Notes under the pieces: model-generated
Told to the model about the DNA's origin: nothing
What the model saw: the letters and a program-made list of their open reading frames with translations, nothing else
The model's database searches: none
Part shown: positions 3,329 to 19,084 of the stretch, piece after piece
Position numbering within the stretch: the stretch's first letter is position 1
How the letters are laid out: each line of letters starts with the position of its first letter
Position numbers and translations under genes: made by a program
Source: a virus
Taxonomy: Duplodnaviria; Heunggongvirae; Uroviricota; Caudoviricetes
Direction: 5' to 3' (one strand)
Virus record (IMG/VR): IMGVR_UViG_2609459794_000003
DNA: 19,084 bases

Positions 3329-3920
3329 CGCCATTGCTCCCCAAATACAAAACCAATTTCAGCCAGTGCCTCGTCCATTTTTTCGATGAACTCCGGCACC
3401 ATCTCGTCAAAACTCGCCATGTACTTTTCATCCTGCTCAATCACGACATAATGCAGGCCTTCACGCTTCATCCGCGGGTCATAGTTGGCAAAGTACCAGG
3501 CATCTTTTCGTGCCACCCACATGCTGTACTGCACCTGGGCCATGTAAGCCGATTTTATGGCTTCGAAACCACCGAGCCGGAACTTCATGAAATCCCGGGA
3601 GGTAAACGGGCATTTCAGTTCAAGGCCGTTGCCATCACTGCATAAACCATCGGGAGAGCAGGCGGTGCGCATACTTTCGTCGCGATAGATGATCGGGGAT
3701 TCAATAACATTCACGCCGGAAGTGAACTCAAACAGGGTTCTGGCGTCGTTCTCGTACTGTTTTCCCCAGGCCACTTCTTTCCTGAGCGGGGCTTTGCTAT
3801 CACGTTGTGAACTTCTGAAGCGGTGATGACGCCGAGCCGTAATTTGTGCCATGCATCATCCCCCTGTTCGACAGCTCTCACGTCGATCCCGGTACGCTGC
3901 AGGATAATGTCCGGTATCAT
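3325..3920 (-). pseudogene. exo: lambda-type exonuclease (Red alpha) disrupted by an ~85-nt internal deletion and frameshift
   Basis: Two overlapping ORFs in different frames together match lambda Exo as recalled: N-terminal [51 protein letters not shown] (3711..3920) and C-terminal ...[19 protein letters not shown]...FVFGEQWR (3325..3852). The span is 596 nt versus 681 nt expected for a 226-aa Exo; the junction is at about 3767-3773. Confidence 0.8.
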
Positions 3921-4707: not shown

Positions 4708-5004
4708 TTATACCTCTGAATCAATATCAACCTGGTGGTGAGCAATGGTTTCAACCATGTACCGGATGTGTTCTGCCATGCGCTCCTGAAACTCAACATC
4801 GTCATCAAACGCACGGGTAATGGCTTTTTTGCTGGCCCCGTGGCGTTGCAAATGATCGATGCATAGCGATTCAAACAGGTGCTGGGGCAGGCCTTTTTCC
4901 ATGTCGTCTGCCAGTTCTGCCTCTTTCTCTTCACGGGCGATCTGCTGGTAGTGACGCGCCCAGCTCTGAGCCTCAAGACGATCCTGAATGTAATAAGCGT
5001 TCAT
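4708..5004 (-). CDS. gam: Gam, host RecBCD nuclease inhibitor (98-aa short form)
   Basis: [60 protein letters not shown]... matches the lambda Gam core. AGGAGG lies 6 nt upstream of the ATG, and an in-frame stop about 20 codons upstream precludes the long lambda-style N-terminal extension. Confidence 0.9.
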
Positions 5005-5079
5005 GGCTGACCTCCTGAAAATGGCTGTGAAAATATCGCCCGCGAAATGCCAGGCTGATTAGGAAAACAGGAAAGGGGA

Positions 5080-5370
5080 TTAGTGATTCAGGCCGTTACC
5101 GCGTCCGTCGAGAAAAACTTCCACGAGCAAATCACGGGTATAAGTGCGCTCGATGCCGCGATGCAGATAAAGCCGTCCGCGTAAATTAGCTGATGCAGTC
5201 CAGGTACCATCTTTGTGTTTGACCAGCATTCCTGGCATGACCGCACCTCGATTAACGGTCTGCGTTCCATAATGTTGATGAACCATAAAAACTCCTGCCC
5301 GTAAGCTGGGCTGCTGAACATATAGAGACTTCTGCGCGTATTCAGGCGGTGGATGGCCGCCGGTTGTCAT
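5080..5370 (-). CDS. hypothetical protein in the kil/cIII position (96 aa); coding status uncertain
   Basis: Only sizeable ORF between pL and gam; GC-rich, moderate RBS (GAGG about 11 nt upstream). An alternative 77-aa frame (5088..5321) exists, so this call is weak. Confidence 0.35.
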
Positions 5371-5559
5371 AACTAAGCCGCCTCGTTGAAGCGACTAAGG
5401 TATGAAATGTTGAGTTAATTTCAGCTGGTCACACCGACGTTCACGCGTCCGTTTCACCCCTCGCACTCCCCGAAGCCTGCTGAAATTCAAACTGCGGATC
5501 TAAGCGGTCATCGCAACGGTGAATCAGGTAGTTGCCGTATCGTTGTGTTGTTGCGATGA

Positions 5560-5625
5560 ACTTATTTAAAACTATAGTTGTTTTATCGTCAACAACAAAA
5601 GTTGTTTTATTGGTTGTTTTAGATA
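5560..5625 (-). promoter_or_regulatory. putative pL promoter with OL operator half-sites
   Basis: On the minus strand: -35 TTGACG (plus 5587-5592), 17-nt spacer, -10 TTAAAT (plus 5564-5569). It is flanked by repeated GTTGTT / AACAAC motifs and is nearly identical in layout to the pR region. Confidence 0.5.
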
Positions 5626-5727
5626 TAACTGGTTGTATTTAGGATGGATTTATTTTGTGACTTGAATCGCATAGCGATAACTGAAGCGAGGTTATGGTGG
5701 TTTTTTTAACGGTGTGTGATGAGGGGA

Positions 5728-5758
5728 GGGCAAAAGAAAACCCGGCACGGTGACCGGG
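5728..5758 (-). terminator. putative intrinsic terminator downstream of cI
   Basis: On the minus strand: CCCGG-ucaccgug-CCGGG followed by TTTTCTTTTG, about 120 nt downstream of the cI stop. Confidence 0.5.
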
Positions 5759-5879
5759 ATTCTTACGCCGTTAGGTAAAGATATTATTGCGGTGGCTTAA
5801 TATTACTACCTAGAGCAAAGATAGGAATTAGTTCTTTACTGAATGAGCACAATGCCCAGTTGATAATTTTTAATTGGTA

Positions 5880-6569
5880 CTACCCATGCTTCCTATATGT
5901 CTGCGGCATGCTCCCAATAACCTTACCGAAGATGAACACCCGGTTCATCTCGTCTTTCTCGATCGGGTCCCACGGTGAGTAGCTTTTGTTATCAGAGATG
6001 ACCAGCAGCTTATCCTTCATCATTTGCAGGCGCTTTACATGGGCTGTGTCGTCGTACAGAAACGCATAGATACCATCACCGTCGAAAGATTTAACTGTGA
6101 TATCAACGAACAGCAGATCACCTGGTTCGATCGTTCCTGACATGCTGTCACCACGCACGTTAATGATGCGGATATTTTCCGCCTTCCTACCATCGAACAT
6201 GTGACGAGCATCGTCAAACGAGTACTCAACCGAGCGTAGAACTTCTACAAACTCACGGTTGATGACTCCCGGCCCAGCACTGACTTCTATATCAAGAACG
6301 TCAATCTTGAAGTATTTGGAATGGCTGACAGTTGATTGTATTGGTTGCACTGTACTGTCTGACATATTTCCAACGCCAGAAGATAACCATTCTGCGCGCA
6401 CACCCAAAGCGTTCGCGATCTCCACGATTTTAGTTGTTTGATTAGCTTTCCCTGTTTCGATTTTCTGAATAGCAGCCTGGCTAACCCCGACCAAATCCCC
6501 AAGCGCCTTTTGTGTAAGGCCTCGCGCTAATCTGGCTTCTTTAAGTCTTTCTGAGAGTGTTGTTTTCAT
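5880..6569 (-). CDS. cI: CI-type prophage repressor (N-terminal HTH plus C-terminal S24 LexA-like autopeptidase)
   Basis: HTH LTQKALGDLVGVSQAAIQKIETGK; Ala-Gly cleavage-site candidate (EVSAGPG); catalytic Ser in VRGDSMSGT and Lys in AHVKRL. The start is taken at MKTTLSERL (ATG 6567-6569); the listed ORF extends 22 codons further upstream. Confidence 0.9.
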   Translation of the reverse strand: MKTTLSERLKEARLARGLTQKALGDLVGVSQAAIQKIETGKANQTTKIVEIANALGVRAEWLSSGVGNMSDSTVQPIQSTVSHSKYFKIDVLDIEVSAGPGVINREFVEVLRSVEYSFDDARHMFDGRKAENIRIINVRGDSMSGTIEPGDLLFVDITVKSFDGDGIYAFLYDDTAHVKRLQMMKDKLLVISDNKSYSPWDPIEKDEMNRVFIFGKVIGSMPQTYRKHG

Positions 6570-6580
6570 ATTCCAAATGT

Positions 6581-6672
6581 ACAACCAAGGTTTTATTCCA
6601 TCAAACGAAAATGGTTGTTGACTAAAAACAACCATAGTTTTAATCTTGATTCAAATTAACCACGGAGGTTGT
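6581..6672 (+). promoter_or_regulatory. pR promoter and OR operator region (divergent cI/cro control)
   Basis: -35 TTGACT (6618-6623), 17-nt spacer, -10 TAATCT (6641-6646). The perfect 9-7-9 palindrome ATGGTTGTT-GACTAAA-AACAACCAT (6611-6635) overlaps the -35; further GGTTGTT / ACAACC half-sites sit at about 6581-6587 and 6666-6672. Confidence 0.6.
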
Positions 6673-6673
6673 T

Positions 6674-6904
6674 ATGAACCCAGCTATCAAAACAGCGATC
6701 AATATCGTTGGTTCACAAAAGAAACTGGGCGCTGCTTGCGAAGTTTCACAGCAGGCCGTCTATAAGTGGCTTCACAACAAAGCAAAGGTATCCCCTGAAC
6801 ATGTCGGCAGCATTGTTACGGCTACTGGTGGAGTAGTGAAGGCATACCAGATTCGCCCGGATCTTCCGAAGTTGTTTCCACACACCGAAAAGAACGCAGC
6901 TTAA
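6674..6904 (+). CDS. cro: Cro-like HTH repressor
   Basis: 76-aa ORF divergent from cI with HTH GSQKKLGAACEVSQQAVYKW and GGAGG RBS at 6664-6668. Confidence 0.8.
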   Translation: MNPAIKTAINIVGSQKKLGAACEVSQQAVYKWLHNKAKVSPEHVGSIVTATGGVVKAYQIRPDLPKLFPHTEKNAA

Positions 6905-6916
6905 ATTTCCATTTCA

Positions 6917-6929
6917 CGCTCTTTAACAA
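6917..6929 (+). promoter_or_regulatory. boxA-like antitermination element (nutR position)
   Basis: CGCTCTTTAACAA immediately downstream of cro closely matches the rrn/lambdoid boxA consensus (GCTCTTTAACAA). No convincing boxB hairpin follows. Confidence 0.45.
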
Positions 6930-6973
6930 TAAGCAATCAACTTAACAGTCAATTCAAACTAAAGGAGTCAATT

Positions 6974-7513
6974 ATGCAACCACTTACATACCAACAGACT
7001 AGCGGATTTAGCCCGACTGCGGTGATAAATCGTTCTCAAACAAAACAGGTGCCAGGCCACGAAAAAATCCGTGATGCCGTCCGCGCCTGGTCGGCTGTAG
7101 ATAATCAGGATGTCGTTGCCACACTCATTGTGAATGAGTATCGGGAGCAGGGCGGCGGCACCATCGATTTCCCTGATGATGTCAGCCGTGCACGCCAGAA
7201 GCTGTTCCGCTTCCTCGATAACAAATTCGATTCTGAAAAATACCGAAATAACGTGCGTGAACTGACCCCGGCAATTCTGGCGGTACTACCGCTGGAATAT
7301 CGCGGTTACCTGGTTGAGCAGGATAGCTTCATGGCTAGGTTGGCTGAAATGGAAAAGGAACTCAGTGAGGCAAAACAGGCTGTCATTCTCAACGCACCAC
7401 GCCACCAGAAACTGAAGGAAATTAGTGAAGGTATTGTGTCGATGTTTCGTGTGGACCCAGATCTGGCTGGTCCATTGATGGCGATGGTTACTACCATGCT
7501 GGGGGCGATATGA
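6974..7513 (+). CDS. YdaT-like protein in the cII position
   Basis: 179-aa ORF with AAGGAG RBS. Motifs EYREQGGG and LTPAILAVLPLEYR resemble the Rac prophage YdaT family as recalled. Confidence 0.55.
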   Translation: MQPLTYQQTSGFSPTAVINRSQTKQVPGHEKIRDAVRAWSAVDNQDVVATLIVNEYREQGGGTIDFPDDVSRARQKLFRFLDNKFDSEKYRNNVRELTPAILAVLPLEYRGYLVEQDSFMARLAEMEKELSEAKQAVILNAPRHQKLKEISEGIVSMFRVDPDLAGPLMAMVTTMLGAI

Positions 7514-7599
7514 CAGGTTCAGAAATGGCGAAAGCCGGTCTGCTGGAACAGAACCGACTTTCAGGTGCAAATCGTAACACACTCATTGCGGGAGGAATT

Positions 7600-8529
7600 A
7601 TGGCAAACACTGCTGAGATATTCAATTTTCCAGTGCCGGATGCGGCACAAAAGGAGCCGCGCGTGGCAGATCTCGATGATGGTTATACGCGCATTGCAAA
7701 TGAGTTGCTGGAAGCTGTGATGCTGGCCGGATTAACACAGCACCAGCTTCTGGTCTTCCTGGCTGTCATGCGCAAAACATATGGCTTTAATAAAAAACTG
7801 GATTGGGTGAGCAACGAGCAACTGTCCGAATTGACCGGGATATTGCCGCACAAGTGTTCTGCTGCAAAAAGTGTTCTGGTAAAGCGTGGGATTTTGATTC
7901 AGAGCGGGCGGAATATCGGTATTAATAATGTGGTCAGTGAATGGTCAACATTACCCGAATCAGGTAAGAAAAATAAAGTTTACCTGAAAGAGGTAAATAT
8001 ACCTGAATCAGGTAAGAAAAGTTTACCCAAATCAGGTAAAGGCGTTTACCCGAATCAGGTAAACACAAAAGACAAACTAACAAAAGACAATATAAAACCT
8101 TTTTCGTCCGAGAATTCTGGCGAATCCTCTGACCAGCCAGAAAACGATCTTCCTGTGGTGAAACCGGATGCTGCAATTCAGAGCGGCAGCAAGTGGGGGA
8201 CAGCAGAAGACCTGACCGCCGCAGAGTGGATGTTTGACATGGTGAAGACTATCGCACCATCAGCCAGAAAACCGAATTTTGCTGGGTGGGCTAACGATAT
8301 CCGCCTGATGCGTGAACGTGACGGACGTAACCACCGCGACATGTGCGTGCTGTTCCGCTGGGCATGCCAGGACAACTTCTGGTCCGGTAACGTGCTAAGT
8401 CCGGCCAAACTCCGCGACAAGTGGACCCAACTCGAAATTAACCGTAACAAGCAACAGGCAGGCGTGATAGCCAGCAAACCAAAACTCGACCTGACAAACA
8501 CAGACTGGATTTACGGGGTGGATCTATGA
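7600..8529 (+). CDS. O: replication initiator O (lambda-O-like; divergent N-terminal iteron-binding domain, lambda-like C-terminus)
   Basis: GGAGG RBS at 7591-7595, then MANTAEIFNF...RVADLDDGYTRIANELLEAV...; C-terminus ...KPKLDLTNTDWIYGVDL as in lambda O. The listed ORF starts 30 codons upstream at 7510. Confidence 0.9.
   Translation: MANTAEIFNFPVPDAAQKEPRVADLDDGYTRIANELLEAVMLAGLTQHQLLVFLAVMRKTYGFNKKLDWVSNEQLSELTGILPHKCSAAKSVLVKRGILIQSGRNIGINNVVSEWSTLPESGKKNKVYLKEVNIPESGKKSLPKSGKGVYPNQVNTKDKLTKDNIKPFSSENSGESSDQPENDLPVVKPDAAIQSGSKWGTAEDLTAAEWMFDMVKTIAPSARKPNFAGWANDIRLMRERDGRNHRDMCVLFRWACQDNFWSGNVLSPAKLRDKWTQLEINRNKQQAGVIASKPKLDLTNTDWIYGVDL
7951..8105. repeat. origin of replication: four palindromic iterons plus an AT-rich segment inside the O gene
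   Basis: Direct repeats ACC(C/T)(G/A)AATCAGGTAA at 7951-7968, 7999-8016, 8022-8040 and 8045-8064, each an internal palindrome (ACCTGA-A-TCAGGT), with a degenerate copy at 7979-7996. They are followed by the A-rich tract ACACAAAAGACAAACTAACAAAAGACAATATAAAACC. Confidence 0.75.
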
Positions 8530-9227
8530 AAAACATCGCCGCACAGATGGTTAACTTTGACCGTGAGCAGATGCGTCGGATCGCCAACAACATGCCGGAA
8601 AAGTACGACGAAAAGCCGCAGGTACAGCAGGTAGCGCAGATCATCAACGGTGTGTTCAGCCAGTTACTGGCAACTTTCCCGGCGAGCCTGGCTAACCGGG
8701 ACCAGAACGAACTGAACGAAATCCGCCGCCAGTGGGTTCTGGCTTTCCGGGAAAACGGGATCACCACGATGGAACAGGTTAACGCAGGAATGCGCGTAGC
8801 CCGTCGGCAGAATCGACCATTCCTGCCATCACCCGGGCAGTTTGTTGCCTGGTGCCGGGAAGAAGCATCCGTTACCGCCGGGCTGCCAAACGCCAGCGAG
8901 CTGGTTGATATGGTTTACGAGTATTGCCGGAAACGTGGCCTGTATCCGGATGCAGAGTCTTATCCGTGGAAATCAAACGCGCACTACTGGCTGGTTACCA
9001 ACCTGTATCAGAACATGCGGGCCAATGCGCTGACTGATGCGGAATTACGGCGCAAGGCTGCCGATGAACTGGCCTGTATGACAGCGCGAATTAACCGTGA
9101 TGAGGCGATACCTGAACCAGTAAAACAACTTCCTGTCATGGGCGGTAGACCTCTAAATCGTGCACAGGCTCTGGCGAAGATCGCAGAAATCAAAGCTAAG
9201 TTTGGGCTGAAAGGAGCAAGTGTATGA
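8526..9227 (+). CDS. P: replication protein P (DnaB helicase loader), lambda-type
   Basis: 233-aa ORF MKNIAAQMVNFDREQMRRIANNMPEKYDEKPQVQQVAQIINGVFSQLLATF... matching lambda P as recalled; its start overlaps the O stop. Confidence 0.95.
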   Translation: MKNIAAQMVNFDREQMRRIANNMPEKYDEKPQVQQVAQIINGVFSQLLATFPASLANRDQNELNEIRRQWVLAFRENGITTMEQVNAGMRVARRQNRPFLPSPGQFVAWCREEASVTAGLPNASELVDMVYEYCRKRGLYPDAESYPWKSNAHYWLVTNLYQNMRANALTDAELRRKAADELACMTARINRDEAIPEPVKQLPVMGGRPLNRAQALAKIAEIKAKFGLKGASV

Positions 9228-9526
9228 CGGGCAAAGAGGCAATTATTCATTACCTGGGGACGCATAAGAGCTTCTGTGCACAGGACGTTGCCGCGGTAAC
9301 AGGCGCAACCGTAACCAGCATAAATCAGGCTGCGGCTAAAATGGCGCGGGCAGGAATCCTGGTCGTTGATGGTAAGGTCTGGCGAACGGTGTATTACCGG
9401 TTCGCTACCAGAGAAGAACGGGAAGGAAAGGTGAGCACGAATCTGATTTTTAAGGAGTGTCGCCAGAGTGCCGCGATGAAACGGGTATTGAGGGTATATA
9501 AAAGAACATCAATGGGTACACAATGA
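9224..9526 (+). CDS. ren: Ren-like protein (Rex-exclusion resistance), C-terminus divergent
   Basis: MTGKEAIIHYLGTHKSFCAQDVAAVTGATVTSINQAAAKMARAGILVVDGKVWRTVYYRFATREEREGK... matches lambda Ren as recalled; the last ~10 residues differ where the low-GC island begins. Confidence 0.8.
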   Translation: MTGKEAIIHYLGTHKSFCAQDVAAVTGATVTSINQAAAKMARAGILVVDGKVWRTVYYRFATREEREGKVSTNLIFKECRQSAAMKRVLRVYKRTSMGTQ

Positions 9527-9593
9527 TGAAACAGGTGAGTTGAGTTCAAACTGTAGTACAATTCTCTCCAGTTTGAACAGGAAAGAATATGCT

Positions 9594-9926
9594 ATGAACC
9601 CTTATATTTATCTTGGTGGTGCAATACTTGCAGAGGTCATTGGTACAACCTTAATGAAGTTTTCAGAAGGTTTTACACGGTTATGGCCATCTGTTGGTAC
9701 AATTATTTGTTATTGTGCATCATTCTGGTTATTAGCTCAGACGCTGGCTTATATTCCTACAGGGATTGCTTATGCTATCTGGTCAGGAGTCGGTATTGTC
9801 CTGATTAGCTTACTGTCATGGGGACTTTTCGGCCAACGGCTGGACCTGCCAGCCATTATAGGCATGATGTTGATTTGTGCCGGTGTGTTGGTTATTAATT
9901 TATTGTCACGAAGCACACCACATTAA
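9594..9926 (+). CDS. emrE: small multidrug resistance (SMR) efflux transporter EmrE
   Basis: 110-aa, 4-TM ORF MNPYIYLGGAILAEVIGTTLMKFSEGFTRLWPSVGTIICYCASFWLLAQTLAYIPTGIAYAIWSG... with the conserved membrane-embedded Glu in the first helix (AEVIGT). Confidence 0.95.
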   Translation: MNPYIYLGGAILAEVIGTTLMKFSEGFTRLWPSVGTIICYCASFWLLAQTLAYIPTGIAYAIWSGVGIVLISLLSWGLFGQRLDLPAIIGMMLICAGVLVINLLSRSTPH

Positions 9927-9956
9927 AATAATTTGTTTCTAAACGACTAAAATATG

Positions 9957-9996
9957 GAGGCTCTTATATTTATATGAGCCTCGTTTTATGCTTTTT
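9957..9996 (+). terminator. putative terminator after emrE
   Basis: GAGGCTC-ttatatttatat-GAGCCTC (7-bp stem) followed by GTTTTATGCTTTTT. Confidence 0.5.
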
Positions 9997-10180
9997 GTTA
10001 ATGTCTTTATTTTTTATGTATTCTTTTGTGCTTTCAAGATTATGGCGTAAGAAAATTGCAATACGATTATTGTTGTATATTCAAGATAATGTGACCTTAA
10101 TTGTCTTTTTAAATAAAAATTAAACAAAAATTATATCCCACCACTAAGGTTTATAAAAGCATACGTTAGCAGGTGTCACC

Positions 10181-11707
10181 ATGAAAAAAGCCATAGCATA
10201 TATGCGATTTTCATCACCAGGTCAGATGTCTGGTGACTCATTAAACCGACAGAGAAGACTTATTGCTGAATGGTTAAAGGTAAATAGTGATTATTATCTT
10301 GATACCATAACATATGAAGATTTAGGATTAAGTGCATTCAAAGGAAAGCATGCACAATCAGGAGCTTTTTCGGAATTTTTAGATGCTATAGAGCATGGTT
10401 ATATATTGCCAGGAACTACATTGTTAGTTGAAAGTCTGGACAGACTTTCAAGAGAAAAAGTCGGTGAAGCGATTGAACGTCTGAAATTGATTTTGAATCA
10501 CGGTATTGATGTTATAACTCTTTGCGACAATACAGTCTATAATATTGACTCTTTGAATGAGCCATATTCATTAATAAAAGCCATACTTATAGCACAAAGG
10601 GCAAATGAAGAAAGCGAGATAAAGTCAAGTCGGGTTAAATTATCATGGAAGAAAAAACGGCAGGATGCACTGGAATCAGGTACGATTATGACGGCGTCTT
10701 GTCCGAGATGGCTCTCCTTAGATGACAAAAGAACGGCTTTTGTTCCAGACCCCGACAGGGTGAAAACTATTGAGCTAATTTTTAAACTCAGGATGGAAAG
10801 GCGCTCATTGAATGCAATAGCCAAGTATTTAAATGATCATGCTGTAAAGAATTTCTCAGGAAAAGAAAGTGCATGGGGACCTTCTGTAATTGAAAAATTA
10901 TTAGCGAATAAAGCTCTGATAGGTATATGCGTACCTTCATATCGTGCAAGAGGGAAAGGGATAAGTGAAATCGCTGGCTATTATCCCAGAGTCATATCAG
11001 ATGATTTGTTTTACGCTGTACAGGAAATTCGGTTGGCACCTTTTGGTATTAGCAATAGTAGCAAGAATCCTATGCTAATAAATCTACTTCGAACAGTTAT
11101 GAAGTGTGAGGCTTGTGGTAATACCATGATTGTTCATGCGGTATCTGGAAGTTTGCATGGCTATTATGTTTGTCCGATGAGAAGATTACATCGATGTGAC
11201 AGGCCATCAATAAAAAGAGATTTGGTTGATTATAATATCATTAATGAATTGCTTTTTAATTGTAGCAAAATTCAACCAGTTGAAAACAAGAAAGATGCTA
11301 ATGAAACTTTAGAGTTAAAAATTATTGAGCTTCAGATGAAAATTAATAATTTAATCGTTGCATTGTCTGTCGCGCCTGAAGTTACCGCTATAGCAGAGAA
11401 AATAAGACTATTAGATAAGGAATTACGAAGGGCTTCGGTATCATTGAAAACTTTGAAGAGTAAAGGTGTAAATTCATTCAGTGATTTTTATGCTATTGAC
11501 TTAACCAGTAAAAATGGACGAGAGTTATGCCGTACACTTGCCTATAAAACATTCGAAAAAATCATAATTAATACGGATAATAAAACCTGTGATATCTATT
11601 TTATGAATGGCATTGTTTTTAAACACTATCCTTTAATGAAAGTAATATCCGCCCAGCAGGCGATAAGTGCTCTCAAATATATGGTTGATGGTGAGATTTA
11701 TTTCTAA
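10181..11707 (+). CDS. ybcK: large serine recombinase (resolvase/invertase catalytic domain, recombinase domain, zinc ribbon)
   Basis: 508-aa ORF with N-terminal serine-recombinase motif (AIAYMRFSSPGQ...SLNRQ), Cys cluster CEACGN...YYVCPMRRLHRCD and a C-terminal coiled-coil-like region. Low-GC gene. Confidence 0.9.
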   Translation: MKKAIAYMRFSSPGQMSGDSLNRQRRLIAEWLKVNSDYYLDTITYEDLGLSAFKGKHAQSGAFSEFLDAIEHGYILPGTTLLVESLDRLSREKVGEAIERLKLILNHGIDVITLCDNTVYNIDSLNEPYSLIKAILIAQRANEESEIKSSRVKLSWKKKRQDALESGTIMTASCPRWLSLDDKRTAFVPDPDRVKTIELIFKLRMERRSLNAIAKYLNDHAVKNFSGKESAWGPSVIEKLLANKALIGICVPSYRARGKGISEIAGYYPRVISDDLFYAVQEIRLAPFGISNSSKNPMLINLLRTVMKCEACGNTMIVHAVSGSLHGYYVCPMRRLHRCDRPSIKRDLVDYNIINELLFNCSKIQPVENKKDANETLELKIIELQMKINNLIVALSVAPEVTAIAEKIRLLDKELRRASVSLKTLKSKGVNSFSDFYAIDLTSKNGRELCRTLAYKTFEKIIINTDNKTCDIYFMNGIVFKHYPLMKVISAQQAISALKYMVDGEIYF

Positions 11708-12171
11708 ATAATGATCTCGGATTTTAAGTTATGCTATGGTGATAAAGTGCAAGACAGAATTAATTATCTTTGACGAAACTTAATGGGTAATTACTTTGTT
11801 TGCTCCCACAAGCGAGTTTTGTACGGCTGTATTGGGGTAGTAAATGAGCTATACAATCTTAATCATTTGTTAGGTGAGAACTCTTGGTCGCAGATTCAAA
11901 TACTGAAAATACGTGACAAATTATTATGAGCAAAATGGTGTATGTCACGTATTTTGAATGGTAGGTTAAAAAATAACACCGACTTTCGTAGGTATTACTA
12001 ATAATAAAGCAGAGTTTTTAGATAGTATCAATGTGCTTTGTGTATATTGTGGCAAATAATTGGGTTGGGGGTACAATTGTGATTGCTTTTGCATAAACAT
12101 TGCGCCTTTATGCATAATGAGATAAAGGAATATCAAATAAAATAACGATAGGTCATAACAAAGAGGTTTTT

Positions 12172-12723
12172 ATGAAAACACTTATCGTTTCAACTGTATT
12201 GGCATTCATAACATTTTCTGCGCAGGCTGCAGCATTTCAGGTCACTAGTAATGAAATAAAAACAGGAGAGCAACTTACAACGTCTCATGTCTTTTCTGGA
12301 TTTGGGTGTGAAGGTGGTAATACATCGCCCTCATTAACCTGGTCTGGTGTTCCTGAAGGTACCAAAAGCTTTGCCGTAACTGTATATGATCCAGATGCAC
12401 CTACAGGCAGTGGTTGGTGGCATTGGACTGTTGTTAATATTCCAGCAACAATAACATATTTGCCCGTTGATGCAGGGAGACGTGATGGAACAAAACTGCC
12501 GACTGGTGCTGTTCAAGGCCGAAATGATTTTGGCTATGCTGGGTTTGGTGGCGCATGTCCTCCTAAAGGAGATAAACCACATCATTACCAGTTTAAAGTA
12601 TGGGCTCTAAAAACTGAAAAGATTCCTGTAGATTCTAACTCCAGCGGAGCGTTAGTTGGTTATATGCTTAATGCTAATAAAATCGCAACCGCTGAGATAA
12701 CACCAGTTTATGAGATAAAGTAG
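12172..12723 (+). CDS. ybcL: secreted PEBP/RKIP-family protein (YbcL-like)
   Basis: 183-aa ORF with signal peptide MKTLIVSTVLAFITFSAQAAA and PEBP-type motifs (YDPDAP, GxHHY). Confidence 0.85.
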   Translation: MKTLIVSTVLAFITFSAQAAAFQVTSNEIKTGEQLTTSHVFSGFGCEGGNTSPSLTWSGVPEGTKSFAVTVYDPDAPTGSGWWHWTVVNIPATITYLPVDAGRRDGTKLPTGAVQGRNDFGYAGFGGACPPKGDKPHHYQFKVWALKTEKIPVDSNSSGALVGYMLNANKIATAEITPVYEIK

Positions 12724-12732
12724 GGTGAGAGT

Positions 12733-13530
12733 ATGCTGGCAAGAGGTAAGACTAACTTAAAGATCGAAGAAATACGGATGCATAAACATCATGAGATTCA
12801 TAGGGTTAAGCCTCTTATGCCAGCTTTGTGTCGTATCCGTCAGGGAAAGAAAGTTATCAATTGGGAGACGCATACTTTAACTGTTGATAATAATCAAATA
12901 ATATTATTTCCTTGTGGTTATGAATTTTATATTGAGAATTATCCTGAAGCAGGGCTTTATCTTGCAGAAATGCTTTACTTACCCATTGATTTAATTGAGA
13001 GTTTCCAAAAACTTTATACGGTAACTGATCAAATACGTAACAAAACAAGTTTCTTTTTACCTCAGAATCCTGAGTTAATATATTGTTGGGAGCAACTAAA
13101 AACATCTGTTTCCCGAGGCTTCTCAACTAAAATTCAGGAGCACTTAGCAATGGGCGTTCTACTTTCGTTAGGAGTGAATCATGTTAATCATTTACTTTTA
13201 TCATATAGTAAACAATCATTGATAAGTCGTTGTTATAACCTGCTGCTATCCGAACCCGGCACAAAATGGACAGCAAACAAGGTTGCTCGATATCTCTACA
13301 TTTCTGTTTCTACATTACATCGCCGTCTAGCAAGCGAGGGGGTAAGTTTCCAAAGTATACTGGACGATGTGAGGTTAAATAATGCGTTGTCTGCTATACA
13401 AACGACGGTAAAACCTATAAGCGAGATTGCCAGAGAAAATGGTTATAAGTGTCCTTCTCGTTTTACTGAAAGATTTCATAATCGTTTTAATATAACACCA
13501 AGAGAGATAAGAAAAGCTTCCAGAGAGTAA
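12733..13530 (+). CDS. ybcM: AraC/XylS-family transcriptional regulator (YbcM-like)
   Basis: 265-aa ORF with C-terminal AraC-type double HTH (...[40 protein letters not shown]...[30 protein letters not shown]...). Confidence 0.8.
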
Positions 13531-13646
13531 AAGTGTTTTAAGAAGGAGCAATTCTATCGATTTTGATTTTGGGAAATCAACACGGCATAATTATGTCACC
13601 GGAGCCTGAACAACTCCGGTGACTTCTGCGCTAAACGGGGACGTTT

Positions 13647-13748
13647 ATGCGCACATACAATCCAAACTCTCTTCTCCCTTCACAGATGCAGAAATGCACC
13701 TGCAATTCTTTGCATCTAGCGTTTGACCTCTGCGGAGGTGAAGCGTGA
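13647..13748 (+). CDS. ylcH: possible 33-aa small protein (YlcH-like)
   Basis: ATG at 13647 to TGA at 13746-13748 encodes [33 protein letters not shown]; its stop overlaps the ybcN GTG start. The assignment rests on position and length only. Confidence 0.35.
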
Positions 13749-14200
13749 ACCTCTCACAAGACGGCATCAAATTACATCGCGGCAACTTCACCGCTATCGG
13801 TCGGCAGATCCAGCCTTATCTGGAGGAGGGCAAATGCTTTCGCATGGTGCTTAAACCGTGGCGTGAGAAACGCAGTCTTTCCCAGAATGCACTCAGCCAC
13901 ATGTGGTACAGCGAAATCAGTGAATACCTCATCAGCAGGGGTAAAACGTTCGCCACTCCAGCTTGGGTAAAAGATGCTCTCAAACACACATATCTCGGTT
14001 ATGAAACCAAAGACCTGGTTGATGTCGTAACCGGTGATATCACCACTATCCAGTCGTTACGCCATACCTCCGATCTTGATACCGGAGAGATGTATGTCTT
14101 CCTGTGTAAGGTTGAAGCCTGGGCGGTGAATATTGGCTGCCACCTGACTATTCCGCAGAGCTGCGAGTTCCAGCTGCTCCGCGACAAGCAGGAGGCGTAA
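13745..14200 (+). CDS. ybcN: NinB-family protein (YbcN-like)
   Basis: 151-aa ORF with GTG start; nin-region position upstream of ninE; sequence matches DLP12 YbcN as recalled. Confidence 0.8.
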
Positions 14201-14370
14201 TGGCTACACCGCTTATTCGTGTCATGAACGGACACATCTACAGAGTATCAAATCGTCGTAAGCGTAAGCCTGAGCTGAAGCCATCCGAAATACCAACACT
14301 GCTCGGATATACCGCTAGCCTGGTTGATAAAAAATGGTTGCGACTGGCAGCAAGGAGGAATCATGGCTGA
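14200..14370 (+). CDS. ninE: NinE-like small protein
   Basis: 56-aa [59 protein letters not shown]; its ATG overlaps the ybcN stop (TAATG). Below the ORF-track cutoff. Confidence 0.7.
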   Translation: MATPLIRVMNGHIYRVSNRRKRKPELKPSEIPTLLGYTASLVDKKWLRLAARRNHG

Positions 14371-14653
14371 TTTGAGAAAAGCAGCGCGTGGTCGGGAATG
14401 CCAGGTAAGAATCCCTGGCGTATGTAATGGCAATTCTGAAACGTCTGTACTGGCACATATCCGGCTGGCTGGATTGTGCGGTACCGGTATCAAACCGCCA
14501 GACCTGATTGCCACCATTGCATGTTCTGCCTGCCACGACGAAATCGACCGCCGCACACATTTTGTCGATGCTGCATATGCAAAAGAATGCGCGCTGGAAG
14601 GTATGGCGAGAACACAGGTTATCTGGCTGAAAGAGGGGGTTATTAAGGCGTGA
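14363..14653 (+). CDS. ybcO: YbcO-like nin-region protein (Cys-rich, putative nuclease)
   Basis: 96-aa [45 protein letters not shown]...CSACHDEID; GGAGG RBS at 14354-14358. Confidence 0.8.
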
Positions 14654-15012
14654 ATACCTACAGTATCACATTACCCTGGCCTCCGAGCAATAATCGCTAT
14701 TACCGCCATAATCGCGGGCGCACGCACGTCAGTGCAGAGGGGCAGGCATACCGCGATAACGTCGCCCGAATCATTAAAAACGCAATGCTGGATATCGGCC
14801 TGGCTATGCCTGTGAAAATCCGCATTGAGTGCCACATGCCGGATCGCCGTAGCCGTGACCTGGATAATCTGCAAAAAGCCGCTTTTGACGCACTCACTAA
14901 AGCAGGTTTCTGGCTGGATGATGCTCAGGTCGTTGATTACCGCGTTGTGAAGATGCCTGTTACCAAAGGTGGGAGGCTGGAACTGACCATCACCGAAATG
15001 GGGAATGAATGA
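14650..15012 (+). CDS. rusA: RusA Holliday-junction resolvase
   Basis: 120-aa [53 protein letters not shown]...[15 protein letters not shown]... matching RusA as recalled; GTG start overlapping the ybcO stop. Confidence 0.95.
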
Positions 15013-15149
15013 TGTTTGAGTTTAATATGGCAGAACTTCTTCGCCACCGCTGGGGGCGTCTGCGCTTATATCGTTTCCCCGGCTCTGTTTTGACCGATTA
15101 CCGAATACTGAAGAATTACGCCAAAACACTGACAGGAGCAGGAGTATGA
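15009..15149 (+). CDS. ylcG: YlcG-like small protein (46 aa)
   Basis: [46 protein letters not shown]; its start overlaps the rusA stop. Below the ORF-track cutoff. Confidence 0.55.
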
Positions 15150-15234
15150 AGTCAGAGATAACAATCAACTAATACTGTTTTGTTGATTTTTGCTTGTAAT
15201 TGGCGTTCTGGTCTGAGTTTTGTGGAGTAAGTTG

Positions 15235-15612
15235 ATGCGTGATATTCAGATGGTTCTTGAGCGTTGGGGAGCGTGGGCGGCTAATAATCATGAAGATGTG
15301 ACCTGGTCGTCCATTGCCGCCGGTTTTAAGGGATTAATTCCTTCAAAAGTAAAATCTCGCCCGCAATGTTGTGACGATGACGCGATGATCATTTGCGGGT
15401 GCATGGCCCGTCTGAAAAAGAACAACAGCGATTTGCATGATTTATTGGTGGACTATTATGTCGGCGGCATGACTTTTATGGCGCTTGCACGTAAGCATGG
15501 GCGATCTGATTGTTGGGTTGGCAGGATGCTCCAGAAAGCTGAGGGCGTAGTGGAGGGTATGCTGATGGTGTTGGATCTCCGATTGGAGATGGATGCTGAT
15601 TGTTCAAAATAA
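15235..15612 (+). CDS. quuD: late-gene antiterminator Q (QuuD / phage 82/21 type)
   Basis: [62 protein letters not shown]...; Cys-rich zinc-binding region; located immediately upstream of a terminator, as for Q/qut/tR'. Confidence 0.85.
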
Positions 15613-15711
15613 TTAAAGGAAAAGTTGCTGTCTGATTCTCATTAGTCTAACATTTTAAATGTTGGAATCGCAACGTAGTTATTATCATATAACAGCTTGT
15701 TTCCTGATTTA

Positions 15712-15740
15712 GCCAGCCTCCCCAAAGGCTGGTTTTTTTC
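15712..15740 (+). terminator. tR'-like intrinsic terminator downstream of Q, preceded by a putative late promoter region
   Basis: CCAGCC-tccccaaa-GGCTGG followed by TTTTTTT. Candidate PR' upstream: TTGCTG (15625-15630), 17-nt spacer, TAACAT (15648-15653). Confidence 0.6.
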
Positions 15741-15767
15741 TAATAAGTATTATTTCGGGTAGGGATT

Positions 15768-16292
15768 TTATTGTTTAACCCATAATAATTCATTGACATT
15801 GAATCCCAACTTTTGAGCGGTTCGCACATAGTCTGCTTTTACTTTATCTGGAATAGTTGGGGTCCTTGCCAGAATCCATAGGTATTCTCTGTTCGGACCA
15901 CTGACAAGAGCATACTTATACTCATCATCCAGTTTGATTACATTATAGCCACCATAGAAGGGGCCAAAAAACGAAACCTTCAACGCTGCAGTTTTAGTAT
16001 CTCCAGTAAAGTATGCTTTACCTTCGCTCTCGCTCCATTTATTTTTCGTTGGATCGTATCCACGGTTAAGTACACGAATCCCTCCGTCGTTCCGTTTTCC
16101 ATAAGTAGCGCTGACCTGTTCCAGACCACGTTCGAACCGGTTCTCGAGGCGAGCTATTTCATACCATTTTCCGAGGTAGCGGTTGGCGTCAAAATTTGTA
16201 ATCGGCTGCACACCTTTAGGTGGTGTCGGGGCCTTACATGCTATAAGAGTGAAAGAGAGTGCAATGCCAGTCAACACAGGCCATAACTTCAT
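15768..16292 (-). CDS. bacterial lipocalin (Blc-like) outer-membrane lipoprotein
   Basis: 174-aa ORF with signal peptide and lipobox (LTGIALSFTLIAC); lipocalin motifs RYLGKWYEIARLENRFERG and SFFGPFYGGYNVI...YLWILAR. Clearly related to, but divergent from, chromosomal Blc. Confidence 0.8.
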   Translation of the reverse strand: MKLWPVLTGIALSFTLIACKAPTPPKGVQPITNFDANRYLGKWYEIARLENRFERGLEQVSATYGKRNDGGIRVLNRGYDPTKNKWSESEGKAYFTGDTKTAALKVSFFGPFYGGYNVIKLDDEYKYALVSGPNREYLWILARTPTIPDKVKADYVRTAQKLGFNVNELLWVKQ

Positions 16293-16484
16293 AATAAATC
16301 CTGTACTTTTGATAGTTGAGAGTAAGTATGAAAGATAGATGATTACGACCGATCACTTAAAGAACTTTCATACTATATTAGGAATAGTCCATAACAGAAA
16401 AATTGTCAGTGATGACGCCAGAAAGGCAATTTAGTCCGTGCACTACACAGTTTATGTGTTAATGAATTAGTCAAGGGGGAGAAT

Positions 16485-17444
16485 ATGATAAAAAAACCTG
16501 TGATTGGAATCAGCGGTTGTTTGGCCGGTTCTGCTGTTCGTTTTGATGGTGGTCATAAAAGAGCTGACTTTTTAATGGACAAATTAGTGGAATGGGTAAC
16601 ATTCAGACCAGTATGTCCGGAAATGGCTATAGGGCTGCCAGTTCCGCGTCCTGCTCTACGTCTTGTGCGCTCGACGCAAGGAAATATACGGATGTGTTTC
16701 AGCCACGACCAGAATGAGGATGTGACAGAGAGAATGACAGAGTTTAGTCGTTCTTATATGGACAAATTAAAGGATGTATCGGGGTTTGTGGTTTGTGCTA
16801 AATCTCCCAGCTGTGGCATGGAGCGCGTGCGTGTCTATGATGAAAATGGTAATCGAGGTCGTAAAGATGGAGTGGGACTATTTACGAGCACTTTGATGGA
16901 AAAGTTTTCCTGGCTACCGGTTGAAGAGGATGGGCGATTACATGATCCAGTGCTTCGTGAGAATTTTGTTGAAAGAGTTTTTGCTTTGCATGAGCTCAAT
17001 CACCTTTACAAGGAGAAATTATCAAGAAGAGAGTTATTAGCTTTTCATAGTCGTTATAAGCTTCAGTTGTTGGCGCATAGTCAGGCAGGCTATAAAGATA
17101 TGGGACCATTTGTGGCTGCAATGCACGAGTGGGCGGACCTTGAATCATACTTTGAGGTGTATCGTGATAAGCTGATGGCGATTCTCAGAAAACCTGCATC
17201 ACGTAAAAATCACACGAATGTGCTGATGCATATACAGGGGTATTTTAGTAACTACTTAAGTACACGCCAGCGTAAAGAGTTGAGCGAGGTTATACTTAAC
17301 TATCGTTCTGGCACATTACCTCTTCTTGCGCCGTTGACTCTGCTGAAGCATTATCTGGGTGAGTATCCTAATGATTACTTGCTTACACAGAATTACTTCG
17401 ATCCCTATCCGGACGAACTGGCTCTAAGACTGATGGTAAATTAA
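16485..17444 (+). CDS. two-domain DUF523 (TudS-like, Cys-rich) / DUF1722 (YbgA-like) protein
   Basis: N-terminus MIKKPVIGISGCLAGSAVRFDGGHKR...RPVCPE...CAKSPSCG resembles the Fe-S-binding DUF523 fold; the C-terminal half resembles YbgA-type DUF1722. Assignment from motif recall only. Confidence 0.55.
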   Translation: MIKKPVIGISGCLAGSAVRFDGGHKRADFLMDKLVEWVTFRPVCPEMAIGLPVPRPALRLVRSTQGNIRMCFSHDQNEDVTERMTEFSRSYMDKLKDVSGFVVCAKSPSCGMERVRVYDENGNRGRKDGVGLFTSTLMEKFSWLPVEEDGRLHDPVLRENFVERVFALHELNHLYKEKLSRRELLAFHSRYKLQLLAHSQAGYKDMGPFVAAMHEWADLESYFEVYRDKLMAILRKPASRKNHTNVLMHIQGYFSNYLSTRQRKELSEVILNYRSGTLPLLAPLTLLKHYLGEYPNDYLLTQNYFDPYPDELALRLMVN

Positions 17445-17786
17445 TTGTATGCGATATCATCCAAAAGGATGAGTTCCTGCATGCAGGATATTTACAATCG
17501 TAAAAACTACACTATGATACCCAGAGTGTCAGTTTGTATAAAAACTCTGTTTACGCTGAAGAAACCATTGAGATGCAACTTAAAGTTGGTAAACATGCCA
17601 GTCAAAATATATAATATTATGATTCCACGCAGCTATATATAATATAACAGATTGGTTTAATAATTTGTCTTTGTGAGTTAAATACATAATTTTATACTTG
17701 TGATGCAATGAGATTTTCCTTATTGTTGAACTGGCGAATATTGATTTTCCACCTATACTTACCTGGTGTAACCCCAATGATATCAG

Positions 17787-18527
17787 GTGGATAATATGCC
17801 ATACATATGTTCTATCATTTTGGTGTTGAACTCGTTTGATGTCCGAATTGGTAAAGAAGATATTTTGTTTAAAAAAGGAAGTGCTGTTCTCATTGATTAC
17901 AATTTAAAAGATTTTTTTTCATCAAATATAGATCATGTAATGATCGTAGATGTTGAAGAGAAAACAGTTAATGATTTCTTTAAAAGCAACACACTCTCAC
18001 CTTTTTCTGTAAGAAGGTTTTATCCGGCATACTTGATGGTGGAATGTGAAGATTTTTCATTGTTAAAGAACTTGATTGCATGCTTGAATTGTGATGGCAG
18101 AACTGTGGATTTTGTTAGAAATCAAATATCACTTGCATGTCTTGCTATCTTATCTTCAGAGAAAATAGTGCAAAGTTTTTTATTTGGATGTCTTAATAGT
18201 TTAGGAAGTAAAGTTAAGGCTATTATTCACACGGATATATCTGCAGCATGGAGACTTTGTGATATATCTTCAAGACTGTATCTGAGTGAAAGTCTGTTAA
18301 AAAGAAAATTAAAGCACGAAGGCTTATCATTTAGTAAGTTAATTCTTGAAGAGCGAATGGTGATGGCGGAAAGGTTATTAAGCTACAATTTATATTCTGT
18401 TGGAAAAGTTGCTGAGATATGCGGTTATGAAAACACGTCATATTTTGTAAGTGTTTTCAGAAGATATTTTGGTGTTCCTCCCCATCAATATTCATCAAGA
18501 CTTTTTTTAGAAAAAGACATGATGTAA
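17787..18527 (+). CDS. AraC-family regulator, AppY/GadX-like
   Basis: 246-aa low-GC ORF with C-terminal AraC HTH (WRLCDISSRLYLSESLLKRKLKHEGLSFSKLILEERMVMAERLL...VGKVAEICGYENTSYFVSVFRRYFGVPPHQY); N-terminus resembles AppY-type regulators. AT-rich upstream region. Confidence 0.8.
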   Translation: MDNMPYICSIILVLNSFDVRIGKEDILFKKGSAVLIDYNLKDFFSSNIDHVMIVDVEEKTVNDFFKSNTLSPFSVRRFYPAYLMVECEDFSLLKNLIACLNCDGRTVDFVRNQISLACLAILSSEKIVQSFLFGCLNSLGSKVKAIIHTDISAAWRLCDISSRLYLSESLLKRKLKHEGLSFSKLILEERMVMAERLLSYNLYSVGKVAEICGYENTSYFVSVFRRYFGVPPHQYSSRLFLEKDMM

Positions 18528-18588
18528 CGTGATGCGTTTTAATGATTTTGTAATTTTCGTATTTGATAATTGTATGATGCTTTCAGCT

Positions 18589-18620
18589 ACGCCAGAATAA
18601 TCGCTGGCGTTTTTCTTTTT
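18589..18620 (+). terminator. putative intrinsic terminator after the AppY-like gene
   Basis: ACGCCAG-aataatcg-CTGGCGT followed by TTTTTCTTTTT. Confidence 0.6.
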
Positions 18621-18715
18621 GAATAGATGTTCAAGCCTTACGCTAATGTAACTTCTATACCTTTCCTCTTCGTTCCGAACCGTGTACACCATCCGTTATT
18701 TGCGGAGGTGAGGCT

Positions 18716-18931
18716 ATGAAATCCATGGATAAGTTAACAACGGGCATTGCCTACGGCACCTCCGCAGGCAGTGCTGGCTACTGGTTTTTACAGCTGCTCG
18801 ATAAAGTCACGCCCTCACAGTGGGCAGCAATAGGTGTGCTGGGTAGCTTGGTATTTGGCCTGCTGACGTACCTGACAAACCTTTATTTCAAGATTAAAGA
18901 AGATAAGCGCAAGGCTGCGAGAGGTGAATAA
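18716..18931 (+). CDS. essD: class II pinholin, phage 21 S-type, with dual-start motif
   Basis: 71-aa [74 protein letters not shown] with two TM segments and Met1/Met4 starts (antiholin/holin pattern of S21). Confidence 0.9.
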
Positions 18932-19084
18932 TGCCTCCATCATTACGAAAAGCCGTTGCTGCTGCTATTGGTGGCGGAGCAATTGCTATAGCATCAGTGT
19001 TAATCACTGGCTCAAGTGGTAACGATGGTCTGGAGGGTGTCAGCTACATACCATACAAAGATATTGTTGGTGTATGGACTGTAT
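18931..19084 (+). CDS. rrrD: SAR (signal-anchor-release) endolysin, N-terminal part; gene continues beyond the window
   Basis: [51 protein letters not shown]...; Gly/Ala-rich weakly hydrophobic SAR domain. Its ATG overlaps the holin stop (TAATG). Confidence 0.8.

Follow-up and report, generated by a model that had tools for sequence, protein, structure and literature searches.

The virus record IMGVR_UViG_2609459794_000003 (Caudoviricetes) provides a stretch of 19,084 nucleotides, hereafter the window, in which four genes of low guanine-plus-cytosine (GC) content, emrE, ybcK, ybcL and ybcM, lie between ren and the nin genes of a lambda-like phage. We describe the content and the boundaries of this block and consider how it may have come to lie there. 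Between positions 9000 and 14400 the window matches E. coli GmM066 at 100% identity and, at 100% coverage, a K-12 MG1655 record at 99.4%. At least 80% of this region is held by 669 of 5,426 complete E. coli genomes, and the complete phage genomes PhiR68_2, PhiR34_1 and PhiR70_1 match it at 99.7-99.8%. Collinearity with GmM066 is found only across 6973-19084 of the window (99.4%), the early-left region being different. These matches identify the window as a lambdoid prophage of the DLP12/phage-82 type, and the emrE-ybcK-ybcL-ybcM block as the accessory region already annotated in DLP12, which is known and ordinary.

The defective DLP12 prophage of K-12 has the same genes in the same order (renD-emrE-ybcK-ybcL-ybcM-ylcH-ybcN-ninE-ybcO-rusA-ylcG-quuD), and the annotation of GmM066 continues after ybcN with ninE, ybcO, rusA, ylcG and Q. 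The K-12 record has an IS3 element under the P/ren part of the match, whereas ren is uninterrupted in the window. The K-12 prophage is heavily deleted; the window has cI, cro, O and P, and the annotation of the matching genome gives the phage a tyrosine integrase and an excisionase. The nin record of phage 82 (X92588; orf33-orf151-orf56-orf96-rus-orf45-Q) is 97.3% identical to the window from 13514 onward. This record covers only 2.3 kb, and its first bases lie in the sequence that flanks ybcM on the 3′ side, which makes the same right-hand module probable for phage 82 as well.

The proteins of the block are readily recognised. EmrE has the Multi_Drug_Res domain (PF00893, 3e-35) at residues 3-94, that is, at full length for a protein of about 110 amino acids, and belongs to PHROG 1395, a QacE-like family of the category moron. 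YbcL has a PBP/PEBP domain (PF01161, 7e-42) behind a signal-peptide-like N-terminus (MKTLIVSTVLAFITFSAQA followed by A). This PEBP/RKIP-like protein is reported to reside in the periplasm, and neutrophil migration is suppressed by the allele found in uropathogenic strains (PMC4810123). YbcM has an AraC-type HTH_18 domain (PF12833, 9.5e-17) at its C-terminal residues 185-261. Together with the recombinase domains of YbcK, discussed below, these matches bear out the gene content proposed in the first-pass annotation, namely an efflux pump, a serine recombinase, a secreted PEBP-family protein and an AraC regulator. None of seven proteins tested has a PADLOC match at E<=0.01, and a defence function for the cargo of this window was rejected on this ground. 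Rfam finds nothing within the block.

The same annotation had described a sharp loss of GC after ren, over 9527-13744, and this is confirmed. GC content is 0.368 over that interval and 0.363 over the slot that homology defines (9500-13561), against 0.510 for O-P-ren (7510-9499) and 0.495 from the nin genes to Q (13562-15612). At third codon positions (GC3) it is 0.26-0.35 in emrE, ybcK, ybcL and ybcM and 0.53-0.61 in ren, P and ybcN, with ybcN itself at GC 0.51 and GC3 0.61. Among all 4,062-bp stretches of the window the GC minimum begins at 9501, and cumulative GC has its change points at 9485 and 13594; these coincide with the breakpoints in homology, which supports the reading of the block as the content of a slot. 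Long AT-rich intergenic regions are present as described: the ybcK-ybcL spacer has 464 bp at GC 0.33, and that between emrE and ybcK, which contains ylcJ, has GC 0.25.

The exact edges were obtained from pairwise BLAST comparisons, then read by eye, with lambda, Perceval, Turner, PhiR26_1, PhiR30_1, PhiR5_1 and two records of the E. coli fliE locus, which is described below. On the left, Ren is conserved to about codon 89-92. Divergence from lambda begins at about codon 90 and takes in the last 8-10 codons, in agreement with the earlier remark that some ten codons differ; before the stop codon the window reads MKRVLRVYKRTSMGTQ and lambda MKRVLAVYGVKR. The Ren tails differ among the window, lambda, PhiR26_1, PhiR30_1 and PhiR5_1, with the limit of homology at 9499 for lambda and PhiR5_1 and at 9490 for PhiR26_1 and PhiR30_1. 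The left junction thus falls within ren, and each cargo type confers its own C-terminal tail on Ren. On the right, homology restarts at 13561/13562 in all of the phages with other cargo that were compared. Position 13562 is the first base of TTTGATT, a putative -35 annotated in X92588, which also annotates a -10 and a 'possible regulator-binding site' at positions of the nin leader. The latter label applies to a hairpin just after the putative promoter (-18.3 kcal/mol, z -5.4), which is strongly conserved; its variants are one-sided C/U changes opposite G, as suits pairing in RNA, with no double compensatory changes and therefore weak covariation. Homology resumes 183 nt before ybcN, so 13562-13744 is backbone and not cargo. 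On these alignments the variable segment is 9491/9500-13561 rather than 9527-13744: it starts about 30 nt further upstream, inside ren, and ends at 13561. The coordinates of the individual features are collected in Table 1.

Table 1. Features of the ren-nin block, of the slot between Q and essD, and of two fliE-locus records. Positions are those of the window unless a locus is named; gene coordinates from ren to ybcN were transferred from the annotation of the matching genome, GmM066.
Feature	Position	Strand	Evidence or content
ren	9224-9526	+	annotated 'protein ren'; PHROG 142 Ren-like, 6e-42
Left slot junction, inside ren 3′ end	9491-9500	.	homology breakpoints and GC change point 9485
emrE module	9500-9933	+	dyad 9544-9578; emrE 9594-9926 (SMR efflux pump)
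Terminator-like hairpin with U-rich tail	9957-9992	+	3′ of emrE; overlaps ylcJ start
ylcJ-ybcK module	9934-11748	+	ylcJ 9974-10123; ybcK 10181-11707 (large serine recombinase)
AT-rich spacer	11749-12016	.	only in the arrangement with both ybcK and ybcLM; perfect 13-nt inverted repeat
ybcL-ybcM module	12017-13561	+	promoter-like site 12049-12077; ybcL 12172-12723; ybcM 12733-13530
nin leader, backbone, right junction	13562-13744	+	putative -35 13563-13568 and putative -10 13586-13591; hairpin 13595-13623
ylcH, 33-codon open reading frame	13647-13748	+	annotation of the matching genome
ybcN, NinB/Orf-like, first nin-block gene, backbone	13745-14200	+	PHROG 72 NinB/Orf, 6e-52
Lipocalin gene	15768-16292	-	slot Q-essD
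YbgA-family gene	16485-17444		slot Q-essD
Helix-turn-helix (HTH) gene	17787-18527		slot Q-essD
fliE-locus relic, E. coli NC101 (L009)	4714-8860 of that locus		emrE-ybcL-ybcM next to fliE
fliE-locus relic, W5-6 (L002)	8001-10154 of that locus		emrE-ybcL-ybcM next to fliE

Evidence on the nature of the block comes from what related phages carry in its place. Among the matches listed by our searches, from which slot diversity was sampled, the ren and nin junctions enclose at least six cargo types, and the flanks of phages with other cargo are 96-97% (ren) and about 95% (nin) identical to those of the window. Three types retain emrE-ybcK, followed by an alpha/beta hydrolase gene (Perceval, 4A7 and others), by small hypothetical open reading frames (ORFs; Turner) or by only 280 bp (strain CDC#03-98). 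The others are PD-Lambda-1 (PADLOC 2e-198) with Rha in PhiR26_1, an acyltransferase with a lipoprotein in PhiR30_1, Rha with hypothetical genes in PhiR5_1, and two small ORFs, about 0.8 kb in all, in two chromosomal prophages. Cargo that lacks a recombinase uses the same outer junctions, which indicates that the junctions belong to the slot and not to this particular island. A query of the joined flanks found 109 genomes with both flanks within about 0.8 kb; an empty ren-nin site is absent from the best 40 of these 109 places, all of which hold other cargo of about 0.8 kb, the smallest load seen. Lambda shares the left junction and, with 73 nt between ren and ninB (tR2), has the slot in a near-empty state. 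Neither its nin leader nor its ninB can be aligned as DNA with the window from 13562 onward, so lambda does not supply a genuine empty site for the backbone studied here; YbcN itself is only a distant relative of NinB (Pfam 1.3e-4).

One of these phages is informative about how cargo may accumulate. PhiR26_1 has the nin leader twice (3521-3675 and 5456-5610 of its locus), with the internal copy separating the PD-Lambda-1 module from the Rha module and beginning at the same TTTGATT, which makes this sequence a recurrent module boundary. The duplication suggests that cargo modules were stacked via recombination at this linker. Within the block of the window no copy of the linker was found: the best local score is 22, below the shuffle maximum of 24, and a module boundary of this kind was rejected there.

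A second arrangement of the same genes is found outside the slot. In about 2,700 of the 5,426 complete genomes emrE-ybcL-ybcM adjoin fliE, without ybcK, at about 91% identity; two such strains, NC101 and LF82, we take to be of phylogroup B2. The stretch from fliE to emrE is 88% identical to integrase genes of phages, with an integrase fragment abutting fliE, and 3′ of ybcM lie a 3′ fragment of Q and an NmpC/OmpD-type porin gene, 92% identical to DLP12-like phages. Homology of the fliE locus to the window begins with the final 10 nt of ren, takes in the whole 186-nt nin leader and reaches the GTG start of ybcN. By its sequence, therefore, the fliE locus is a decayed lambdoid prophage in which all phage functions were deleted and only cargo genes kept, and its phage-derived flanks place the direction of transfer from phage to chromosome, not the reverse. 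Between the phage copy and the relic, the ratio of non-synonymous to synonymous substitution rates (dN/dS) is 0.02 for emrE, 0.10 for ybcL and 0.13 for ybcM (dS 0.19-0.40), and the EmrE proteins are 98% identical. Ratios of 0.02-0.13 indicate that these three genes are under purifying selection in both contexts.

With these comparisons the block resolves into a mosaic of at least three modules (emrE; ylcJ-ybcK; ybcL-ybcM with its upstream spacer) rather than one insertion. Positions 9517-9933, with emrE, are common to the fliE relic at 91.6% identity, and 12017-13561, with ybcLM, at 89.5%. The segment between, 9934-11748, follows emrE without a break in Perceval, Turner and CDC#03-98, and the relic lacks it; the spacer 11749-12016 is shared with none of Perceval, Turner and the relic. 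The first-pass annotation had proposed to seek exact junctions and flanking direct repeats by comparison with related lambdoid phages: conserved flanks around different cargo do define the junctions, and the repeats are missing. No direct or inverted repeats and no att-like sites lie at 9491-9500/13561, 9933/12017 or 11748, where only short matches of a type that is often due to chance are found. Perceval, Turner and CDC#03-98 have one common continuation past 11748, and this breakpoint separates two sequence types only; as a cassette-exchange site 3′ of ybcK it was rejected as evidence for site-specific capture. The spacer has an inverted repeat with perfect 13-nt arms (11906-11918 and 11943-11955) and a 24-nt gap, about 50 bp overall, some 200 nt 3′ of ybcK (fold -18.7 kcal/mol, z -5.3); it may serve as an operator or as a site of recombination.

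The modules may also be controlled separately. Directly 5′ of the emrE ribosome-binding site lies a dyad with 13-nt arms (GTTCAAACTGTAG and CTCCAGTTTGAAC; -13.4 kcal/mol, z -2.9); the fliE relic, at 91% identity, has retained this dyad, which may have a part in regulating emrE. The hairpin that follows emrE (GGAGGCUC...GAGCCUC GUUUUAUGCUUUU; -13.6 kcal/mol, z -3.8) is found in Perceval and not in the relic; ylcJ, whose start it overlaps, is frameshifted in Turner. No terminator was found 3′ of ybcM. Promoter-like sites are not enriched overall, with 17 found against 15.5 expected from shuffled sequence. That upstream of ybcL (GTGGCA-17-TACAAT) is the RpoD promoter given for ybcLM by genomic SELEX (systematic evolution of ligands by exponential enrichment) in K-12, an in vitro study that reports both constitutive RpoD promoters and binding of H-NS for two spacers, those 5′ of ybcK and 5′ of ybcLM (PMC3946193). 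Together with the hairpin after emrE, these promoters and binding sites make the units look like self-contained, H-NS-targeted transcription units.

The recombinase gene deserves separate attention. YbcK has the Resolvase (PF00239, 5.5e-19), Recombinase (PF07508, 2.3e-14) and Zn_ribbon_recom (PF13408, 7.9e-8) domains, matches the PHROG 95 integrase family at 4e-120, and has intact catalytic motifs, AYMRFSSPGQ (R9-x-S11-S12...Q15) and LDRLSR. Its dN/dS, 0.07-0.08, equals that of P and ybcN. These properties mark YbcK as an intact large serine recombinase that is maintained under purifying selection and is presumably active. The three-domain N-terminal architecture and the catalytic motifs are those of the phiC31, Bxb1 and TP901-1 integrases and of TnpX of Tn4451. 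Unlike large serine integrases, however, ybcK does not lie at the boundary of an element, and no att sites were identified for it by repeats or conservation. Characterised phage integrases are less than 30% identical to YbcK and no relative of solved structure is detectable by sequence. A literature search found no publication on its recombinase activity.

Full-length homologs of YbcK (40-61% identity) occur in Atlantibacter, Yersinia, Erwinia, Pantoea, Kluyvera and Citrobacter. That of Atlantibacter (L013, 8001-10432) closes a prophage whose tail genes are of the Mu type; next comes ssrA, the transfer-messenger RNA gene, with its 3′ end at a distance of 540 nt, and the homolog thus has a position usually occupied by an integrase. 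Those of Yersinia and Erwinia lie 3′ of tail-fibre and chaperone genes at prophage ends, and that of Citrobacter adjoins shufflon-type PilV and MobA. In a further lambdoid prophage (L019) a homolog of 59% identity lies with KGG and DinI genes in the slot between P and NinG. A direct repeat of about 200 nt, 86% identical (7635-7856 and 10616-10836), brackets the three genes; it is a duplication of the 5′ end of a DUF1367 nin gene. A SIR2-domain gene is found in the same P-nin slot of L019. These positions suggest that the YbcK family may move small cargo units into the accessory regions of prophages. Seven loci compared share no conserved att-like non-coding block beside the homolog. Transfer RNA (tRNA) genes beside the Yersinia and Kluyvera homologs were considered and rejected: ARAGORN finds no full tRNA there, and the tRNA-3′-end-like strings, seen in alignment only, are at most att-type fragments.

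We consider it likely that 9491/9500-13561 is the accessory load, of the moron or lysogenic-conversion kind, of the ren-nin slot in a DLP12/phage-82-type lambdoid prophage. The segment is replaced by other cargo at the same position in close relatives and its composition deviates from that of its flanks, as in the lambdoid morons of the Hendrix/Juhala concept, which are likewise optional, deviant in composition and placed between conserved backbone genes, and whose own promoters may have a counterpart here. Conserved backbone delimits the slot on both sides, with the body of ren to the left and, to the right, the nin leader from its putative -35. Cargo units, each with its own AT-rich upstream region, may have joined the lineage one after another, illegitimate recombination having first brought them in from donors of low GC content. 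At present, phages and prophages that share a cell would exchange them by recombination, homologous or homeologous (Red/RecA), within the conserved flanks and the modules that they have in common, and site-specific insertion of the whole block would not be required. Experiments have shown Red-dependent exchange of lambda or phi80 with DLP12 by way of diverged homology (PMC3945230), which would make this the most economical route for module shuffling.

The cargo genes would serve the lysogen rather than phage growth, and may benefit the host. EmrE would export cationic toxic compounds, YbcM would presumably regulate ybcLM, itself being co-transcribed with ybcL, and H-NS probably holds expression of the cargo low in vivo. 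Slots of this kind recall the variable hotspots of P2- and P4-like elements, where relatives have unrelated genes at the same place (PMC9122126). In the ren-nin slot, PhiR26_1 holds the validated defence family PD-Lambda-1. Unlike that cargo, the load of this window consists of genes of the host-physiology or virulence type and a recombinase.

Several points weigh against this account. An intact YbcK under selection as strong as that on P and ybcN is left unexplained by a purely passive view of the cargo. The junctions are equally compatible with insertion of ybcK and with its deletion from the fliE relic. Furthermore, the slot diversity is drawn from listed matches, and the promoters upstream of ybcK and ybcLM were defined in vitro, by SELEX with K-12.

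The place of ybcK is where other explanations begin. If only ylcJ-ybcK (9934 to 11748 or 12016) were a secondary insertion between emrE and ybcL, a small recombinase-borne element, then the fliE relic would be its empty site: there emrE is joined directly to the upstream region of ybcL, and the 2,083 nt between them in the window are replaced by 4 nt. Selection on ybcK would suit such an element, as would the homologs in accessory spots of other prophages and plasmids. However, neither inverted nor att-like sequences mark the ends of the segment, members of the family have no conserved non-coding block beside them, and the inspected E. coli loci place ybcK at this single position, beside emrE. 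The relic lost everything else by deletion, its other deletions end close to retained genes, and a third deletion is equally simple; nor does the breakpoint at 11748, with its two sequence types, help to decide. We regard this insertion as unlikely. A more general proposal is that the YbcK family is the mobility engine of small, undescribed hitchhiker elements, consisting of the recombinase and 0-3 cargo genes, which enter the accessory slots of prophages and plasmids. Then ybcK, with or without variable genes to its right, would have entered the ren-nin slot site-specifically, and the 200-nt duplication in L019 would be the footprint of an insertion. This proposal seems to us quite improbable.

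More doubtful still is the insertion of the whole block, as one mobile island, between ren and nin by its own recombinase. YbcK has all three domains of a large serine recombinase and intact motifs, its gene is under purifying selection, and the block is compositionally foreign, all of which would suit such an island. It would not explain why no att-like or repeated sequences lie at 9491-9500 and 13561, why ybcK lies 680 nt from the left edge and 1,850 nt from the right edge, why the modules occur separately (emrE-ybcLM without ybcK in the relic), or why cargo without a recombinase shares the same junctions. We consider it very unlikely. Of the earlier view that the block is a secondary insertion and not phage core, the accessory status is retained, since phages with the same flanks carry other genes, and the single insertion is not, since the modules are separate and ybcK is internal. 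Finally, capture by the phage of host genes from a chromosomal emrE-ybcL-ybcM locus at fliE, to which the larger number of genomes with the genes at fliE (about 2,700 against roughly 670 with the prophage version) might point, is extremely improbable, because that locus, with its integrase, Q and porin fragments, ren end and nin leader, is itself a decayed prophage.

Two further features of the window lie outside the block. A second low-GC accessory slot (15613-18715, GC 0.29-0.40) lies between Q and the holin gene essD and holds lipocalin, YbgA-family and HTH genes, where DLP12 has nmpC and other DLP12-like phages have an NmpC/OmpD porin. At the left end of the window Rfam finds the ALIL pseudoknot (RF01497, 116 bits) at 859-975 on the minus strand, between the overlapping minus-strand ORFs 930-1256 and 43-933. 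We take this pseudoknot to be an IS3-type frameshift signal, and an IS3-family insertion sequence is probably present there.

The main value of these results is negative: the block is textbook K-12 annotation and not a new kind of element. That said, the existing annotation is extended by the exact boundaries of the slot, which are reusable and ease the mining of its cargo, including defence genes such as PD-Lambda-1. A further addition is that an intact large serine recombinase, under selection, accompanies a tyrosine integrase in the same phage. Furthermore, the 'chromosomal' emrE-ybcL-ybcM genes of about half of the E. coli genomes are the remnant of a lambdoid prophage reduced to its cargo, and a clean case of domestication under purifying selection.

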